Assembly (NCBI RefSeq): GCF_002854065.1
Contig: NZ_CP024152.1
Strand: one strand, 5' to 3'
DNA length: 64,000 bases
DNA from: Escherichia coli
GTDB lineage: Bacteria > Pseudomonadota > Gammaproteobacteria > Enterobacterales > Enterobacteriaceae
Below, piece after piece: positions 1-64,000 of the stretch. The translations under genes and the position numbers were made by a program. Within the stretch, counting starts at the first letter, position 1, and every line of letters begins with the position of its first letter. The notes under the pieces were generated by a model. That model saw nothing but the letters and a program-made list of their open reading frames with translations. It ran no database searches and was not told where the DNA came from.

Positions 1-4
1 TACG

Positions 5-23
5 CCAGGTACCGGATTGGCAC
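5..23 (-). repeat. Shufflon sfx-type 19-bp recombination repeat, last repeat before rci
   Basis: Reverse complement of 5-23 reads GTGCCAATCCGGTACCTGG, matching the conserved GTGCCAATCCGG core of IncI1 shufflon repeats as I recall them; sits immediately upstream of rci. The rest of the shufflon is outside the window. Confidence 0.5.
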
Positions 24-73
24 GCTTGCAGAGAATGATTGTTGGCATTATTTTTTCCTCTTTTGAGGTTAGC

Positions 74-1228
74 ATGCCGTCTCCACGCATCCGTAAAATG
101 TCCCTGTCACGCGCACTGGATAAGTACCTGAAAACAGTTTCTGTTCACAAGAAAGGGCATCAACAGGAGTTTTACCGGAGCAATGTTATCAAGCGATATC
201 CCATTGCCCTTCGGAATATGGACGAAATAACAACCGTTGATATTGCTACATACAGAGACGTTCGTTTAGCAGAAATCAACCCCCGAACGGGTAAAGCCAT
301 TACAGGTAATACTGTACGTCTTGAACTCGCCCTTCTGTCATCTCTGTTCAATATTGCTCGTGTTGAATGGGGAACCTGTCGTACTAACCCGGTTGAACTG
401 GTTCGCAAGCCGAAAGTATCCTCCGGACGAGATCGTCGGCTAACGTCTTCAGAAGAACGTCGCCTTTCTCGCTATTTCCGCGAAAAAAATCTGATGTTGT
501 ATGTCATTTTCCATCTTGCCCTTGAAACAGCCATGCGGCAGGGCGAAATACTGGCCTTACGTTGGGAACACATTGATTTGCGCCACGGTGTGGCTCATTT
601 ACCTGAAACCAAAAACGGTCACTCACGGGATGTTCCTCTGTCCAGACGTGCCCGTAACTTTCTTCAGATGATGCCCGTTAATCTCCACGGCAATGTTTTT
701 GATTACACCGCATCCGGCTTTAAAAATGCCTGGAGAATAGCCACACAACGACTTCGCATCGAGGACCTGCATTTTCACGATCTACGGCATGAAGCAATAA
801 GCCGCTTCTTCGAACTGGGTAGCCTGAATGTAATGGAGATTGCTGCAATATCAGGACATCGTTCCATGAATATGCTGAAACGGTATACTCATCTTCGTGC
901 ATGGCAACTGGTCAGTAAGCTTGATGCCCGCCGGCGGCAGACACAAAAAGTGGCAGCATGGTTTGTGCCGTATCCTGCCCATATCACGACCATCGATGAA
1001 GAAAATGGGCAGAAAGCGCATCGTATTGAGATCGGTGATTTTGATAACCTTCACGTCACTGCCACAACGAAAGAGGAAGCAGTTCACCGCGCCAGTGAGG
1101 TTTTGTTGCGTACACTGGCCATTGCAGCACAGAAAGGCGAACGTGTCCCATCTCCCGGAGCGTTACCTGTTAACGACCCTGACTACATTATGATTTGCCC
1201 TCTGAACCCGGGCAGCACCCCGCTGTAA
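74..1228 (+). CDS. rci: Shufflon-specific tyrosine recombinase Rci (384 aa)
   Basis: ORF 17-1228; ATG at 74 preceded by GAGG. Tyrosine recombinase motifs ([16 protein letters not shown]) plus a ~110-aa C-terminal extension; position next to the sfx repeat. Confidence 0.8.
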
Positions 1229-1378
1229 ACATCATTCAAAACACATACAGAAAGGCGAGTTGCAACAACTCGCCAAACACATTCGATCTGCATGATCGAA
1301 ATTATTCGTTTCACCAGAAAAAACACCGAAGATACAATAACCACATGAGCTGAAAAGACTTTTTCAGTCGGAGGAACA

Positions 1379-2203
1379 ATGAGACTGAATACGACCGGTA
1401 TTGCGGCCCGAATGATGCTCTCGCTGGACAAAAAAGCAATCGGCGAAAAACTCATCAACGGTCGTCAGATAAACCCGACACCTCTGCAGGTCCGTTACCC
1501 ACAAGGGGTAAGAGAAGTTCTGGGGATAATGAGCGAACAATTAGCCATATCCACCGCTGATTTAACCCGAATCCTGCTTGAGGATGCTCTTCATAATATG
1601 TTTATGCCTGCGGATAACACCACAGGAAACATAATAAGCAGAATTGAATACATCATGCTGTCGCATGATATAAATGCGCCATTACTGGCAACATTGCTGT
1701 CGCCATGGAATATCCGCTCCACGGTTATACAGGACCCGGCCAGACTTGCAGACTATCTTTCAGCTGACGCTCTCGAACATCTTGCTGAATGTTTTAATCT
1801 CAATCCGGACTGGCTGAATGGCCATGAAAACTATCCGATAGCGTTGTCCGGTGAATGGCCAGATACTGCTGATAATTTCAGAATGCTTATTAATAATAGC
1901 AGCAACACTGAAGTTATTTTCTGGCATAGTTTCCCCTTCGCAGGAAACACGAAAAGAGAATATTGCGGGGTAATATTGAGACAGGAAAAAGAAATAAATG
2001 GCTCTGTAATATATCCGGCACTATCATTATCACCAACACTTCTGAACGATGAAAAAAGAAAATGGTTAACTGAATATACAACCAGGCAGAATACAACAAT
2101 GTCTTTGCGACGCGTCACGTTGAGACCTGGCCTTGCCGAGAACCTTATTACAGGGCAAATACTACCTGTTAGCTTATTTAATACGTCTTTATTACCCTGG
2201 TAA
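1379..2203 (+). CDS. traE: TraE-like protein (274 aa), first gene of the traE-traK block
   Basis: ORF with GGAGG RBS; size and position match R64 traE; contains an LxxLxExFxxNPDWLxxxENxP motif shared with ORF 28438-29424. Confidence 0.6.
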   Translation: MRLNTTGIAARMMLSLDKKAIGEKLINGRQINPTPLQVRYPQGVREVLGIMSEQLAISTADLTRILLEDALHNMFMPADNTTGNIISRIEYIMLSHDINAPLLATLLSPWNIRSTVIQDPARLADYLSADALEHLAECFNLNPDWLNGHENYPIALSGEWPDTADNFRMLINNSSNTEVIFWHSFPFAGNTKREYCGVILRQEKEINGSVIYPALSLSPTLLNDEKRKWLTEYTTRQNTTMSLRRVTLRPGLAENLITGQILPVSLFNTSLLPW

Positions 2204-2288
2204 ATACCAGATAGTACCAAAGTAAAAAATTACGGCACATCCGTGTCATAGCGTTGTTTTGTCTAAATTCTGATAAACAGGAAATTAA

Positions 2289-3491
2289 ATGATGAAGAAA
2301 AATCATATTACCCGCACCATCATTGCATCTGCTGTATTATTTTCCTTTAACGCTGCAGCAGCGACGTCATATTTTGAAGCGCGTAACGATGCAATGGGTG
2401 GCACCGGGGTAGCATCTTCCCATTATGGTGTGGCACCTCTGGCAAACCCGGCTTTACTGACAAAGCACAACAGCAATGATGATTTCAGCCTTCTTCTGCC
2501 GTCTGTTGGGGCACAAGTTGCTGATCCTAATGATGTATCAAATAAAGCTGATGATGTTAAAGATGACTGGGATTTGTTTGACAGTGCTGTAGATAACCAG
2601 CATGGCGTACAACAGGCAGCGGCAAATCTTAAACATCGTCTGCAGGAATTCCGCAATATCAATGCAGATGCTCAGGTAGGTGTATCAGCTGTAGCAGCCA
2701 TGGCAAATGACACTCTGCCGTTTGCCCTTATGGTCAAGTCTTACGGAACTGTCAGCGTAAACGGAAAAGTAAACGATGCAGACCTGGATTATCTGGACAA
2801 AGTTGCCAATGGAACAATTACCGACGTCGATAAGAATGCCCTGACCTCACGCGCATTCGGGCGTGCAGCTGTAATTACCGACGTCGGAATTTCATTTGCC
2901 AAAGAACTGGAAACGGCCGGACAAAAATGGTCTCTTGGCGTCACACCAAAATATCAGCGTGTGGACCTGTTTAACTACAACGTAACGGTTCGTGATTACG
3001 ACAAAGACGATTTTGACGGTGACAAGTACCACAACACGAAAAACGGATTCAACGCCGATATTGGTGCTTATACAGACCTGAATGACAACTGGACTGTCGG
3101 TCTTGTTGCCCAGAACATCATTCCACGCAGTATTGATACTAAAGTCGTCAATGGCTTTAAAGAAACCTTCAAAGTTCGTCCACAGGCAACCGCCGGTGTA
3201 TCCTGGCATAATGACCTGTTTACCACTGCTCTTGACGTTGATCTGACTCCTGCCAGTGGCTTCACTTCTGACAGCAAACGTCAGTTTGCAAGTGTTGGTG
3301 CTGAATTTAACGCATGGAAATGGGCGCAATTGCGTGCCGGTTATCGTCAGAACATGGCATCAAACTCCGGAAGCGCCTTCACCGCTGGCGTTGGTATCTC
3401 TCCATTTGACGTCGTACATATCGATGTTTCCGGCCTGGTAGGAACTGACCACGATTACGGTGCAATGGCACAACTTCAGTTCACTTTCTGA
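2289..3491 (+). CDS. traF: TraF-like outer-membrane protein (400 aa)
   Basis: N-terminal signal peptide (AAAATSYF cleavage region) and a C-terminal ...QLQFTF ending in Phe, typical of beta-barrel outer-membrane proteins. Confidence 0.6.
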   Translation: MMKKNHITRTIIASAVLFSFNAAAATSYFEARNDAMGGTGVASSHYGVAPLANPALLTKHNSNDDFSLLLPSVGAQVADPNDVSNKADDVKDDWDLFDSAVDNQHGVQQAAANLKHRLQEFRNINADAQVGVSAVAAMANDTLPFALMVKSYGTVSVNGKVNDADLDYLDKVANGTITDVDKNALTSRAFGRAAVITDVGISFAKELETAGQKWSLGVTPKYQRVDLFNYNVTVRDYDKDDFDGDKYHNTKNGFNADIGAYTDLNDNWTVGLVAQNIIPRSIDTKVVNGFKETFKVRPQATAGVSWHNDLFTTALDVDLTPASGFTSDSKRQFASVGAEFNAWKWAQLRAGYRQNMASNSGSAFTAGVGISPFDVVHIDVSGLVGTDHDYGAMAQLQFTF

Positions 3492-3550: not shown

Positions 3551-4135
3551 ATGATGAAACCACGTTCTTCTTATTCAAAGACAGCATTCATTCTTTTATT
3601 TTCTGTTTTCCTGGTAGCTGCAGTGACAAAAGCAAAAAGCTCGCTTCCCGATATCACCCTAGAACAGGCAAAAGAAATTAATGCTGATAACACCGTTATT
3701 TTCCTTTTCCGCCATGGAGAACGTTGCGACCGTTCAGATATGCCATGCTATTCGGATAAAAGCGGAATCACTATTACCGGTACAGAGAAAGCACAGCAGG
3801 AAGGTATTAAGTTCGCAACAATCTTCAGTGAATATGATATTTACTCCAGCAATGCGGTAAGAACCATACAAACTGCAAAATTCTTCTCCGGTAAAGACCC
3901 CGTCGTTATGGACAGTTTATCAGACTGCAATAATGATCTTTATAAGACGCTTGAATCAATCGCAAGAGAATCTCATAAAAGGAACATAGTAATAATGACA
4001 CATAATCATTGTTTATCATTTCTGGCCAGAGATAGGCTCGGCAAGAAATTCAAACCGGCGTACCTTGATGCCCTGATCATGCATTACGATGGTACCCGGC
4101 TCATACTTGACGGAAAATACAACAAAGAGGCATAG
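3551..4135 (+). CDS. traG: TraG-like exported protein with histidine-phosphatase-type motifs (194 aa)
   Basis: Signal/TM segment, then FRHGER and later MTHNHC motifs resembling the RHG catalytic core of the histidine phosphatase fold. Confidence 0.55.
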   Translation: MMKPRSSYSKTAFILLFSVFLVAAVTKAKSSLPDITLEQAKEINADNTVIFLFRHGERCDRSDMPCYSDKSGITITGTEKAQQEGIKFATIFSEYDIYSSNAVRTIQTAKFFSGKDPVVMDSLSDCNNDLYKTLESIARESHKRNIVIMTHNHCLSFLARDRLGKKFKPAYLDALIMHYDGTRLILDGKYNKEA

Positions 4136-13708: not shown

Positions 13709-14998
13709 ATGAGTGCTGAACAGGATGCCGGTAAATCCGGAAAGAAACTGGCTGCCCTGCTTGGACTGGGCAGCATCATCTTATTTGGCGGCGGCTATAT
13801 CGCGTTTTCCAAACTATCAGGGAGTAACAGCGATATGCAGTCAGCCGTGAACATTAACAGTGCAGCAAGCGGCGGAACGCGCAGCGTTACCGAAACGCCT
13901 CACTATCGTGAACTGTTAAGAGCGGATAATGAACGAGGGGCCGCAGCTGCAGCCCGCAATAATCAGACGTTCATTGCCAGTCTTCCACAGGGGCTTGATA
14001 TTCCGGACACTCCGGAAAAGCAACAACAGCCTGCAGCAAAACCGGAAAACTATGCTCATCGCCAGGCTTCCGGCACACCACAGGAGGATCGAGCAGCCAG
14101 TGAAAAACGTATGGAGCGGCTGCAAACGCTGATTGTAAGAATAAAAGATCAGCATCCTGCCGGTAGTACACCAACCATAGCAACGACTATGTGGAATAAA
14201 TCTCCGGCAGAAACAACAGGGCAGAATGGTACGCAGCAATTCGCATTACAGAATGCCAGCCTGTCCACGCCTGTAGCAGAAAAAGGGATACAACTGATAC
14301 CTGCTCTGACCCGTATACCGGCATATATTGATACTGCAGTGGATTCTGATAACCCGTCATCCAAGGTTATCGCAACCATTCCCGCTGGCCCCTGGGCAGG
14401 GGCAACGCTGTTCAGTCCGGGAGTCAAACTGGTGGGTAACGGCGTGGAGATCCATTTCGACCGGATGAGCTGGAACGGCATGGACCTTAAGGTCAATGCA
14501 TATGCTCAACGGGAAGACAACCTGATGTCATCCGTGGCCAGCAATGTGAATACACGCTGGTTTAAACATATCATTCTGCCGTCAGTGTTAGGAGGTGTGG
14601 GCAGTATTGGCACACTTTATAAAGATGCCAACACGCAGGTTATTCAGGGTAACTATGGCACGGTTACCGGACGCGTGGGAATGCCCAGTGGTGAAGCTGT
14701 TGCGGGCGTTATTGCCGGTGGTATGGCGGAAAGAGGAAGTCAGATATTAACCCGCCAGGCAGAAAGTGAGCCCTATAAACAGGTAGAAGTGTATCAGCAT
14801 GAAGTCGTATCAATTCTGTTTGTTGACCCGGTAATGACAAACGACGCCAGGTCATCTTCCCTTTCCAGTGGCATTTCCCCTTCAGTTAATCGTACATCAC
14901 AGGCGGAACAACGCTCGCAGGCACGAATGCAGACAGCCATGGAGCAAAGAAAAGCTGTGATGCAACGTCGGTATGATGAACAACCGGAGACACCATAA
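13709..14998 (+). CDS. traO: TraO (DotG/VirB10-like core component), 429 aa
   Basis: N-terminal TM helix, Pro/Gln-rich linker and conserved C-terminal domain; GGAG RBS. Confidence 0.6.
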   Translation: MSAEQDAGKSGKKLAALLGLGSIILFGGGYIAFSKLSGSNSDMQSAVNINSAASGGTRSVTETPHYRELLRADNERGAAAAARNNQTFIASLPQGLDIPDTPEKQQQPAAKPENYAHRQASGTPQEDRAASEKRMERLQTLIVRIKDQHPAGSTPTIATTMWNKSPAETTGQNGTQQFALQNASLSTPVAEKGIQLIPALTRIPAYIDTAVDSDNPSSKVIATIPAGPWAGATLFSPGVKLVGNGVEIHFDRMSWNGMDLKVNAYAQREDNLMSSVASNVNTRWFKHIILPSVLGGVGSIGTLYKDANTQVIQGNYGTVTGRVGMPSGEAVAGVIAGGMAERGSQILTRQAESEPYKQVEVYQHEVVSILFVDPVMTNDARSSSLSSGISPSVNRTSQAEQRSQARMQTAMEQRKAVMQRRYDEQPETP

Positions 14999-27449: not shown

Positions 27450-27537
27450 GTTAGTTGAAAAGAGATTTCCTCCGGTCAGGGCCACCCACTCTGTAACGGA
27501 ACAGTAAAAAAACCGACCTCACCAGTCGGTTTTTTTA
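27450..27537 (+). ncRNA. Candidate antisense sRNA (putative antitoxin) for the 27096-27203 peptide gene
   Basis: Sigma70-like -35 TTGCTA (27415-27420) and -10 TATTAT (27438-27443); intrinsic terminator hairpin plus T7 at 27511-27536. The transcript carries GTTAGTTGAAAAGAGATTTCCTCC, a near-exact copy of 27262-27285, so it would be complementary to the opposite-strand mRNA leader. Confidence 0.3.
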
Positions 27538-27689
27538 CATCTGTTGTTTCTCAAAATCCGCCCAACATGCCCGTCACACCGGGGAAACTCATGCTCTGAA
27601 TCAGAACCAACCATCTCAACTTTGCCGTCTCCTGAAAAAACTGGCACATTCAGTTCGATAACTACCCATAAATACAGAGAGAAAATCCG

Positions 27690-28012: not shown

Positions 28013-28165
28013 TTAACGTTTAACTTCGTAGGCTAACGTTGCCACAAGCACTGTGTTTCCCTGCTGGAGCCGGAGTCCGCAAAGCGAATCCCTCACCATC
28101 CAGACAAAACACAGAATCGTCACACAGATGACGATTAACATCATTAAAAACGTTCGCTGTGGCAT
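28013..28165 (-). CDS. pndA: PndA, Hok-family type I toxin (50 aa)
   Basis: Manual translation: MPQRTFLMMLIVICVTILCFVWMVRDSLCGLRLQQGNTVLVATLAYEVKR, with the Hok-family pattern of a TM helix followed by SLC and AYE. Below the ORF-track size cutoff. Confidence 0.8.
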   Translation of the reverse strand: MPQRTFLMMLIVICVTILCFVWMVRDSLCGLRLQQGNTVLVATLAYEVKR

Positions 28166-28223
28166 CATAGCCCCTCCATTGCCTTACGGCGGTTATCGGG
28201 CTACTATAATGTTGTCTAGGCAT
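28020..28223 (-). CDS. pndC: PndC, Mok-like overlapping reading frame enabling pndA translation
   Basis: Overlapping frame (ORF 28020-28358) with an ATG at 28223; hok/mok/sok architecture. Confidence 0.5.
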   Translation of the reverse strand: MPRQHYSSPITAVRQWRGYDATANVFNDVNRHLCDDSVFCLDGEGFALRTPAPAGKHSACGNVSLRS

Positions 28224-28280
28224 TACAGTAGAGCCCTTGGTTGATTGATAAAAAAATCTCCAGGGGCTTTCTGCTGTATA
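28217..28280 (+). ncRNA. pndB: PndB, Sok-like antisense RNA (approximate)
   Basis: Plus-strand -10 TATAAT at 28205-28210; the transcript would be antisense to the pndC start region; imperfect hairpin plus U-rich tail near 28230-28280. Confidence 0.4.
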
Positions 28281-28437
28281 TGGTTTAGTTAACAAAGAGA
28301 GCCAGTGTTCCACTGAGCAAAACCAGTAGCTATTCATGCTTACAATTATCTTCTCCATATCTGAAATAACTCAAACAGCCCAATAGAAACATATTGTTAC
28401 ATCTAAGATCTTGAAAAGACCTCTTTGAGAAATCAAT

Positions 28438-62199: not shown

Positions 62200-62535
62200 A
62201 TGAACAGAAAATATTATTTTAATAATATGTGGTGGGGATGGGTGACGGGGGGATATATGCTGTATATGTCATGGGATTATGAGTTTAAATACAGATTACT
62301 GTTCTGGTGTATTTCTCTCTGCGGAATGGTTTTGTATCCGGTTGCAAAATGGTATATTGAAGATACAGCTCTGAAATTTACCCGGCCTGATTTCTGGAAC
62401 AGCGGTTTTTTTGCTGATACACCTGGAAAAATGGGGTTGCTTGCGGTTTATACGGGTACTGTTTTCATATTATCTCTTCCGTTAAGTATGATATATATTC
62501 TTTCTGTTATTATAAAAAGGCTGTCTGTAAGATAG
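62200..62535 (+). CDS. Colicin Ia/Ib-type immunity protein (111 aa)
   Basis: Starts MNRKYYFNNMWWGW; polytopic membrane protein convergent with the colicin gene; 111 aa fits colicin Ia immunity better than Ib. Confidence 0.7.
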   Translation: MNRKYYFNNMWWGWVTGGYMLYMSWDYEFKYRLLFWCISLCGMVLYPVAKWYIEDTALKFTRPDFWNSGFFADTPGKMGLLAVYTGTVFILSLPLSMIYILSVIIKRLSVR

Positions 62536-62556: not shown

Positions 62557-64000
62557 TTAAATACCCCAGAACTTATTCGCTTTTTCCACAAGCGATTCAT
62601 CAATCAGCGCACCGGTGACAGCCATCAGTAAACCATACCCGATAATGCCTAAAGCGCTTCCGGTAAGAATACTGAAGACCAGTGCCACAAGAGCCGTTGC
62701 GGCATTGCCTGCTATGATGGTTTCTGTTTTAACAAAAAGAGGACGCCAGTTCTCTGTCCGGACAGCCTTACCAAACTCAGTGATCCAGTCAGCAAGACTT
62801 GTAAATTTTCCTGCATATCCCAGTCCCCGACTGAATCTGTTCAGATTAGACGATATATCAGACAGCTTCACAGACTCAAGGGCTGCGGCAATCGCTGCAC
62901 GATCTTTTGCATTAATTTTTTTGTTAATGTCAGCCCGGTACTTTTCATACGTTTTTAATGCCTCTTCAACATTACGTATTTTCTTCCCTTTAGCCTGCCC
63001 GGCCATCTCTCTGGCTAACTGCTCAGCTTTTGCACCATATTTTTCTGAAACTGATTTCAGGAACTCTGTTGTGAAATTAATTGCGTCTTTCGTTGCCTTC
63101 AGTTCATCCTGTTTTCTTTTCTCTTCCGCTATCTTCTGATTGATGCCGGAAAGCTGGTTACGGATATTCTCTTTTTCCTTCAACAGGGCATTAAGAGCGT
63201 CATTTGCATGCTTTTGCTCATTTGTTCTGGCACTGAGGTTATTTCTCGCCGAATTTACCGCAGATTCAGCAGAGGTGATTTTATTTCTGGCATCAAGCAA
63301 TCTTTGCCGTAACTTATCCCATTCAGCAACTTCAGCATTATAAATTTTCTTGTCACCTTCCACATCCTCTGTCACCACCGGATTCCGGTCATTCAGAATA
63401 TTGCGTTTATAGTCCAGACCGGAATGGCTCAGAAGATAATTCAGGTTTGCACGGTTATCGATGACTGCGCTGGTTGTGATTTTTATCGTACCGGCAAATC
63501 TCGGATCACCGCTCACAACAATAGAATGATTTGTTGATGAACGCCCCGGGAATTTTTCAGGGGAAACTATCGTTTTGCCGTCAGGCGTGTTTTTCTGTTG
63601 CGTCAGCTGTTGTTCAGCTCTGGTTAATGCATTACGGGCCGTGTTAAGCGATTCCGTCACTGAACTGAGTTTATTCCGGGCCTCTGAAATGGCCCTGTCA
63701 TTCCGTGTCTGCTGCCCGAGCAGACGGGCCTGTTGTGCATCAAGAACGGCAAGGGCTGCCCCGCCATTTTTTTCCAGCTCTGACAACCGGGTGTCCAGAA
63801 TACCTTTTCTGCGCTCGTATTCAGCAAGCATATCAGCGGCCTTCTTGTCTGCGTTCTGCGCATCCTTCTGCCGTTTTTCAGCCTGTTCGATTAACGACCT
63901 GGCCTCCCGGGGAGATATACGAAGAGAATCAGCATCAGCAAACAGCATCCGGCTCTCTGTATGCAGCCGGAGGGCGTCATATCCGGCGATTTCAGTACGG
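62557..64000 (-). CDS. cia: Pore-forming colicin Ia/Ib, C-terminal ~480 aa (5-prime end beyond the window)
   Basis: Ends ...ALVALVFSILTGSALGIIGYGLLMAVTGALIDESLVEKANKFWGI (channel-forming hairpin); the reading frame stays open to the window edge. Ia versus Ib not resolved. Confidence 0.7.
   Translation of the reverse strand, partial: RTEIAGYDALRLHTESRMLFADADSLRISPREARSLIEQAEKRQKDAQNADKKAADMLAEYERRKGILDTRLSELEKNGGAALAVLDAQQARLLGQQTRNDRAISEARNKLSSVTESLNTARNALTRAEQQLTQQKNTPDGKTIVSPEKFPGRSSTNHSIVVSGDPRFAGTIKITTSAVIDNRANLNYLLSHSGLDYKRNILNDRNPVVTEDVEGDKKIYNAEVAEWDKLRQRLLDARNKITSAESAVNSARNNLSARTNEQKHANDALNALLKEKENIRNQLSGINQKIAEEKRKQDELKATKDAINFTTEFLKSVSEKYGAKAEQLAREMAGQAKGKKIRNVEEALKTYEKYRADINKKINAKDRAAIAAALESVKLSDISSNLNRFSRGLGYAGKFTSLADWITEFGKAVRTENWRPLFVKTETIIAGNAATALVALVFSILTGSALGIIGYGLLMAVTGALIDESLVEKANKFWGI

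Follow-up and report, generated by a model that had tools for sequence, protein, structure and literature searches.

A probable R64-type shufflon terminus with its recombinase gene rci in a 64-kb sequence from Escherichia coli

The terminal sfx site and the rci gene

The 64,000-nucleotide stretch of Escherichia coli DNA analyzed here (contig NZ_CP024152.1; the window) begins with a site of the kind at which shufflons recombine, an sfx site, and continues into rci, the gene of a shufflon-specific tyrosine recombinase (Table 1). An sfx site consists of a variable 12-bp left arm, a 7-bp core or spacer and a conserved 12-bp right arm; the 19-bp repeat comprises core and right arm, with the core as the place of crossover (PMC11852207, PMC5350095). 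The core reads 5'-GTGCCAA-3' and the tabulated sfx109 entry reads ttctctgcaagc-gtgccaa-tccggtacgtgg (PMC4176322). This architecture was drawn from open papers that restate it (PMC4176322, PMC11852207, PMC5350095). The first 80 bases of the window can be divided accordingly as tacg-ccaggtaccggattggcac-gcttgcagagaa-tgattgttggcattattttttcctcttttgaggttagc-ATGccg. Positions 5-23 (ccaggtaccggattggcac) are the exact reverse complement of the 19-mer GTGCCAATCCGGTACCTGG, as a first-pass annotation of this DNA had stated with the correct coordinates. Next to the core, the right arm conforms to the conserved consensus TCCGGTNNNTGG, and the same right arm is present at four of the seven sfx sites in the related plasmid NZ_CP055111.1. 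The 12 bases on the other side of the core are the reverse complement of ttctctgcaagc, the rci-proximal left arm of sfx109 (PMC4176322). The window therefore contains a complete 31-bp sfx on the minus strand, at positions 5-35, that is uncut by the window edge.

The open reading frame downstream of the site starts with an ATG at 74-76, preceded by the Shine-Dalgarno sequence GAGG, and encodes 384 amino acids identical to Rci database entries, which bears out the earlier placement of rci at position 74. Its Pfam Phage_integrase domain (PF00589, 6e-24) covers residues 122-275. In an alignment to the structure of HP1 integrase (1aih), R155, H235/R238 and Y271 fall on the conserved catalytic boxes; the catalytic residues are R155, H235, R238, H262 and Y271, with the Y271 codon at 884-886. 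The exact protein is found on at least 1000 contigs of a public protein collection, and 33,026 collection blocks are indexed as containing it; its names include 'Rci ... C7SA68_ECOLX' (UniRef) and members of its cluster are also called 'shufflon-specific DNA recombinase'. The primers with which Peikon et al. cloned the functional Rci of pEK204 match window positions 74-94 and 1212-1228 with one synonymous difference (PMC4176322), so the ATG at 74 is the working start codon. A longer frame opening with TTG (17..1228) was considered as rci and rejected, since both the annotated and the experimentally cloned gene start at the ATG. By analogy with the characterized enzymes, the window protein is expected to invert DNA between inverted sfx sites.

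A T-run in the rci leader (window 51-57) reads ttttttcctc, whereas records L008, L009 and L016 carry a 1-nt G insertion (ttttttGcctc) and belong to another rci allele lineage. On the far side of the gene, the GC-rich hairpin directly after the stop codon and the promoter-like sequence ahead of traE suggest that rci ends one transcription unit and that traE begins another.

We consider it very probable that positions 5-35 on the minus strand are the rci-proximal terminal sfx of an R64-type shufflon on an IncI1/IncI-gamma conjugative plasmid, with Rci encoded at 74-1228. The site, the gene and their identity to known sfx and Rci sequences are observed directly; the remainder of the shufflon and pilV probably lie just left of the window in the source plasmid, as they do in its relatives.

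Table 1. Positions of the shufflon terminus, rci and other features of the window
Feature	Position	Strand	Basis or remark
Predicted continuation of the PilV D' C-terminal cassette, CGTAAAAGCAATTCTGG...	leftward off the window	-	
CGTA, first 4 nt of invertible DNA past the right arm; putative start of the PilV D' C-terminal cassette	1..4	-	comparison with seven cassette ends of relatives
19-bp repeat (core + right arm)	5-23	-	exact GTGCCAATCCGGTACCTGG
sfx right arm TCCGGTACCTGG, variable triplet ACC; invertible side, moves with the cassette	5-16	-	sequence; PMC11852207, PMC4176322
sfx 7-bp core/spacer GTGCCAA; published crossover region, right-hand shufflon boundary	17-23	-	sequence; PMC4176322, PMC5350095
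sfx left arm TTCTCTGCAAGC, site-specific; fixed DNA on the rci side	24-35	-	identical to sfx109 left arm ttctctgcaagc (PMC4176322)
rci leader with GAGG at 65-68	36..73	+	read from sequence; conserved in near-identical relatives
rci, shufflon-specific tyrosine recombinase, 384 aa	74..1228	+	open reading frame, Pfam, Rci identity; annotated as site-specific integrase WP_001139955.1 in relatives
GC-rich hairpin, 9-bp stem, directly after rci stop	1254..1274	.	sequence scan
Sigma-70-like site, 9/12, ahead of traE (1379)	1310-1338		sequence scan
AgrB antisense RNA	27451-27538	+	Rfam, 55.3 bits, above gathering score
sok antitoxin RNA	28163-28380	-	Rfam, 74.9 bits, above gathering score
Colicin Ia immunity gene	~62200-62535		mapped from NZ_AP021916.1 annotation
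Colicin Ia gene, cut by the right end of the window	~62557-64000	-	mapped from NZ_AP021916.1 annotation

Shufflon layout and isomers in related plasmids

Window positions 1-3000 match 1,693 PLSDB plasmids, 1,323 of them at 99% identity or more. Most of the latter are from Escherichia, Salmonella or Shigella, and they type as IncI-gamma/K1, MOBP and MPF_I. One of the relatives, NZ_CP055111.1, is 100% identical over window 1-3000 and carries, in order on one strand, pilQ...pilU, pilV, a 1.9-kb region, rci and traE-traJ. The region between pilV and rci contains seven copies of the 19-mer (4087+, 4642-, 4669+, 5143-, 5170+, 5676- and 6005-), none of which is expected by chance, and the last of them is identical to window 5-23. 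This agrees with the four segments and seven repeats described for R64 (PMC5430464, PMC5350095). In the complete relatives examined that keep the shufflon, the site has pilV and the invertible segments immediately to its left, on the same strand as rci. The left arm is identical in all relatives that retain the terminal site (17/17). The first-pass annotation had called the repeat a terminal sfx adjoining rci, and both the sfx109 left arm and the recurrence of the same junction in relatives identify it as a genuine sfx.

The junction next to rci can be read in 16 related records. All share the left arm and core, whereas the right arm occurs in three variants (ACC, ACG and CGG) and the adjoining cassette end in six. 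The CGG triplet is joined to TCAGGGGG in five records and ACG to AAGACTTC in one, while ACC is joined to AAATCATC and GGCGCTCC in three records each and to CGTAAAAG and AGAAAGGT in two each. The right-arm triplet varies in step with the cassette, which places the exchange point within window 11-23, in agreement with the published crossover in the core. Isomer variation is thereby directly observed among the relatives. Alternative ends joined at a constant core and left arm are the footprint of Rci inversions in the plasmid lineage, as seen in the relatives rather than in the source plasmid itself.

The closest relative over the whole window, NZ_AP021916.1 (pWP2-W18-CRE-03_2, 87,852 bp; PLSDB, RefSeq E. 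coli), shows the same kind of variation. It is identical to the window at positions 5-3067; its mismatches at positions 1, 2 and 4 fall exactly at the edge of the repeat and arise because its shufflon is in another isomer. Over window 39001-64000 it has 100.0% BLAST identity, and overall it departs from the window by a few single-nucleotide polymorphisms (SNPs) and two small indels.

The four bases that precede the repeat indicate which cassette adjoins rci in the window. Among the seven cassette ends of related shufflons, only the D' end has CGTA after an ACC right arm. Translated in the pilV frame, the D' cassette of NZ_CP055111.1 reads CQSGTWRKSNSG...ACQN* (in a longer quotation, CQSGTWRKSNSGSTV...ACQN*), the same sequence as the coding sequence annotated 'shufflon protein D'' in NZ_OR506644.1. 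On the minus strand, the first 23 bases of the window encode C-Q-S-G-T-W-R of D', and the frame (...CQSGTW/RK...) runs leftward, away from rci. A D' end therefore appears to abut the terminal site, pointing away from pilV; not being joined to pilV, it would be silent in this isomer. The first-pass annotation had held that segment order and orientation could not be assessed from the window. This stands for all of the shufflon except its rci-proximal end, which is readable as a putatively silent D' (ACC plus CGTA). A D'-rci junction is found in about 10-13% of near-identical plasmid records, based on small spread samples (4/40 rows with a contiguous match and 3/23 near-identical rows with a match from base 1 onward). 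These samples were used in place of a count at 80% coverage or more, which was rejected since the D segment plus the repeat alone make up 81% of the query. The D' right arm has ACT instead of ACC in records L014, L017, L018 and L020.

Several related records depart from the four-segment layout. CP029842.1 (L010; 2981-3010) is a natural shufflon-less variant in which the pilV-proximal sfx (GGCAATACTTTC-GTGCCAATCCGGTACGTGG) has been fused to the sequence 8 bp ahead of the rci ATG, with all segments and the terminal sfx deleted. Only four sfx sites, or two segments, lie between pilV and rci in the reduced shufflons (2340-3450) of CP052799.1 (L012) and JAHSRX010000001.1 (L021). The same pil-shufflon-rci-tra block is also found in four chromosome-sized records of 4.7-5.4 Mb (L013, L019, L020 and L021), which represent either integrated IncI1 plasmids or assembly joins.

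Alternative readings and comparison with known systems

Several observations weigh against an R64-type shufflon terminus. No second sfx is found within the 64-kb window, either as the 19-mer at up to three mismatches or as the 12-mer GTGCCAATCCGG at up to two, so that neither a partner site nor pilV can be demonstrated there. The 12-mer has no second exact copy in the window, and its five further matches with two mismatches are at chance level (six found in total, 6.9 expected). NCBIfam has no Rci-specific model and gives only sub-threshold XerA/XerC matches. The best-matching record, NZ_AP021916.1, carries a shufflon isomer different from that of the window. Finally, the D' call rests on four bases plus the right-arm triplet, and a random 4-mer matches one of the seven ends with a probability of about 3%.

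The lack of a visible partner site in the window is what would be expected of an orphan terminal sfx, a relic whose segments, pilV or both have been deleted or interrupted to the left, for instance by an insertion sequence or a cointegrate junction. Deletion variants such as CP029842.1, without a shufflon, and the two records with four sfx sites are known to occur naturally. The CP029842.1 deletion, however, removed the terminal sfx as well instead of leaving it behind, and the window, like intact relatives, still has CGTA, the start of D'. In addition, every relative that has the site and a readable junction (16/16) carries further sfx sites upstream, with partners inverted, along with pilV. 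We therefore regard a relic site as highly improbable. That the 19-mer lies by coincidence beside an unrelated integrase can be dismissed altogether. It is single-copy in the 64 kb at up to three mismatches, and even at that stringency only 0.02 matches are expected from shuffled sequences (2/100 shuffles had any match); moreover, the flanking 12 bp equal a published left arm (PMC4176322) and the protein is identical to Rci.

A different explanation concerns the window edge itself, which may be no arbitrary cut but a point where the assembly or scaffold broke because of the shufflon, as mixed isomers in a culture halt short-read assemblers at sfx sites. Shufflons are among the hardest regions to assemble (PMC5430464, citing Brouwer 2015, 'IncI shufflons: assembly issues'), and the window starts just four bases beyond the repeat. 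In OU349843.1 (L016), a 100-N gap (3331-3430) begins exactly at the left edge of the 19-mer (sfx at 3431-3449). An assembler stopping at the branch point should break at position 5, as happened in OU349843.1, and not four bases into a specific cassette, which is a mild argument against this origin of the edge. A shufflon-induced break is a tentative possibility, less likely than not; it concerns the data and not the biology, and is compatible with the R64-type terminus proposed here. The gap in OU349843.1 separates the terminal 19-mer from unrelated chromosomal genes and is a direct example of assembly breaking at this site.

The R64-type terminus is further supported by comparison with characterized systems. 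The core GTGCCAA and the right-arm consensus TCCGGTNNNTGG of R64 (IncI1; Komano, Gyohda and co-workers) and of the pEK204 Rci system used for barcoding (PMC4176322) are the same as in the window, as is the rci-proximal left arm of sfx109, ttctctgcaagc. The 384-aa Rci of the window has the same ATG and stop as the functional gene cloned from pEK204 (PMC4176322). R64 also shares the layout of the window's relatives, with four segments, seven sites, pilV upstream and traE-traJ downstream. In the engineered sfx109 the right arm is of the 'a' type (ACG); that of the window is ACC because it is the D' end that adjoins the site at present. Nothing substantive distinguishes the window from R64 in this comparison, which was made through the literature and near-identical plasmids and not with the R64 sequence (AP005147).

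Plasmids of the IncK2/Z (pL2-87) and IncI2 (R721-type, mcr-1 plasmids) groups have the same core and right-arm consensus as the window. Their terminal sfx is likewise inverted relative to rci with the left arm on the rci side, but lies 61-62 bp before the start codon instead of 50 bp as in the window. Their rci genes have only about 72% DNA identity to that of the window, their left arms are TGCAATACTTTC and TGCAATATCACC, and their leaders, right-arm triplets and cassette sets also differ. The serine-invertase switches Hin, Gin, Cin and Min likewise use site-specific inversion to switch C-terminal or surface-protein variants, but they employ a serine instead of a tyrosine recombinase, require Fis and an enhancer, act on symmetric sites and usually invert a single segment.

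Proposed function and plasmid context

From published work on Rci, a mechanism can be proposed for the site. One Rci monomer would bind the core and right arm specifically while a second would bind the left arm non-specifically (PMC11852207, PMC4176322). Strands would then be exchanged within GTGCCAA with any oppositely oriented sfx. Because sfx sites are asymmetric, only inversions would result; this asymmetry, combined with the additional domain at the C-terminus of Rci, limits the reaction to oppositely oriented sites (PMC11852207, PMC4176322). Each inversion would swap the cassette fused to the constant part of pilV. PilV is the thin-pilus tip adhesin that recognizes recipient lipopolysaccharide (PMC5430464), and a changed PilV C-terminus would alter recipient specificity in liquid matings. 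The terminal site would form the fixed right-hand edge of the shufflon, with all DNA left of window 17-23 invertible and the left arm, leader and rci fixed. It could pair with plus-oriented sites, which in NZ_CP055111.1 are those at 4087, 4669 and 5170, so that inversions at the terminal site would turn over one to all four segments. We infer that the shufflon system is active in the source plasmid.

The extra C-terminal domain, which is absent from Cre, XerC/D and lambda Int and is required for Rci function (PMC11852207), is present in the window protein as approximately residues 277-384 (window ~902-1225), a stretch of about 108 residues that follows the catalytic tyrosine region. An AlphaFold2 model of this domain, made from the single sequence, shows a compact beta-beta-beta-alpha-beta arrangement with a mean predicted local distance difference test (pLDDT) score of 74.9. 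The domain matches Pfam HicB_lk_antitox below threshold (E = 0.0012, 19.5 bits against a 27-bit cut-off), a weak precomputed match of Rci to PF15970 (HicB-like_2) exists, and one source name for the Rci sequence mentions the HicB family; no paper naming Rci together with HicB was found in the literature searched. The C-terminal domain is predicted to have a HicB-antitoxin-like fold; as no alignment went into the model, this prediction counts as a lead rather than a result.

The constant placement of the terminal sfx close to rci may also be functional and not incidental, in that bound Rci might repress its own transcription and in this way set the rate of shuffling. Promoter-like hexamers overlap the left arm, TTGCAG (26-31) and TATTTT (49-54) with a 17-nt spacer, and score about 6-7/12, below the scan threshold; a sigma-70 consensus scan between sfx and rci accordingly returned no promoter at threshold. 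At the equivalent position, IncK2/Z and IncI2 plasmids have TTGCAT and TACCTT, also separated by 17 nt. One source describes rci as belonging to the pil operon (PMC11852207). Since the hexamers are below threshold and rci is placed in the pil operon, autoregulation is a weak reading that we consider improbable.

The remainder of the window is IncI1 backbone, comprising traE-traY, excA, trbABC, nikAB, the leading region, a umuDC-like operon, parM, the colicin Ia immunity gene and part of the colicin Ia gene. The order of rci followed by traE, F, G, H, I and J through traY, excA, trbABC and nikAB, together with the MOBP and MPF_I types, is that of an IncI1/IncI-gamma backbone. This assignment comes from the annotation of 100%-identical relatives and from PLSDB typing, with the replicon lying outside the window. 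At positions corresponding to the sok and AgrB matches, a near-identical plasmid has annotated genes for Hok/Gef and DinQ-like DqlB toxins. Compared with NZ_AP021916.1, the window has SNPs at 14127, 19788, 26814, 28381, 29722, 39181 and 39273. The two sequences also lose register at about 39385 and regain it at about 54150 (the latter position estimated from the mismatch count). The total length is unchanged, which points to two compensating small indels.

An R64-type shufflon terminus with rci is a fully known system, characterized since the 1980s, and the present locus adds little to its biology; more than 1,000 sequenced plasmids carry this exact rci allele, and the assemblies that contain it number tens of thousands. 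The HicB-like fold predicted for the C-terminal domain of Rci may be of interest to engineers of inversion-only recombinases. For annotation, the site is useful as a landmark, since assemblers frequently break or misorder the region whose fixed edge it marks. Which PilV cassette currently abuts rci can be read from the few bases to the left of the repeat, and plasmid comparisons should therefore mask everything left of window 17-23.
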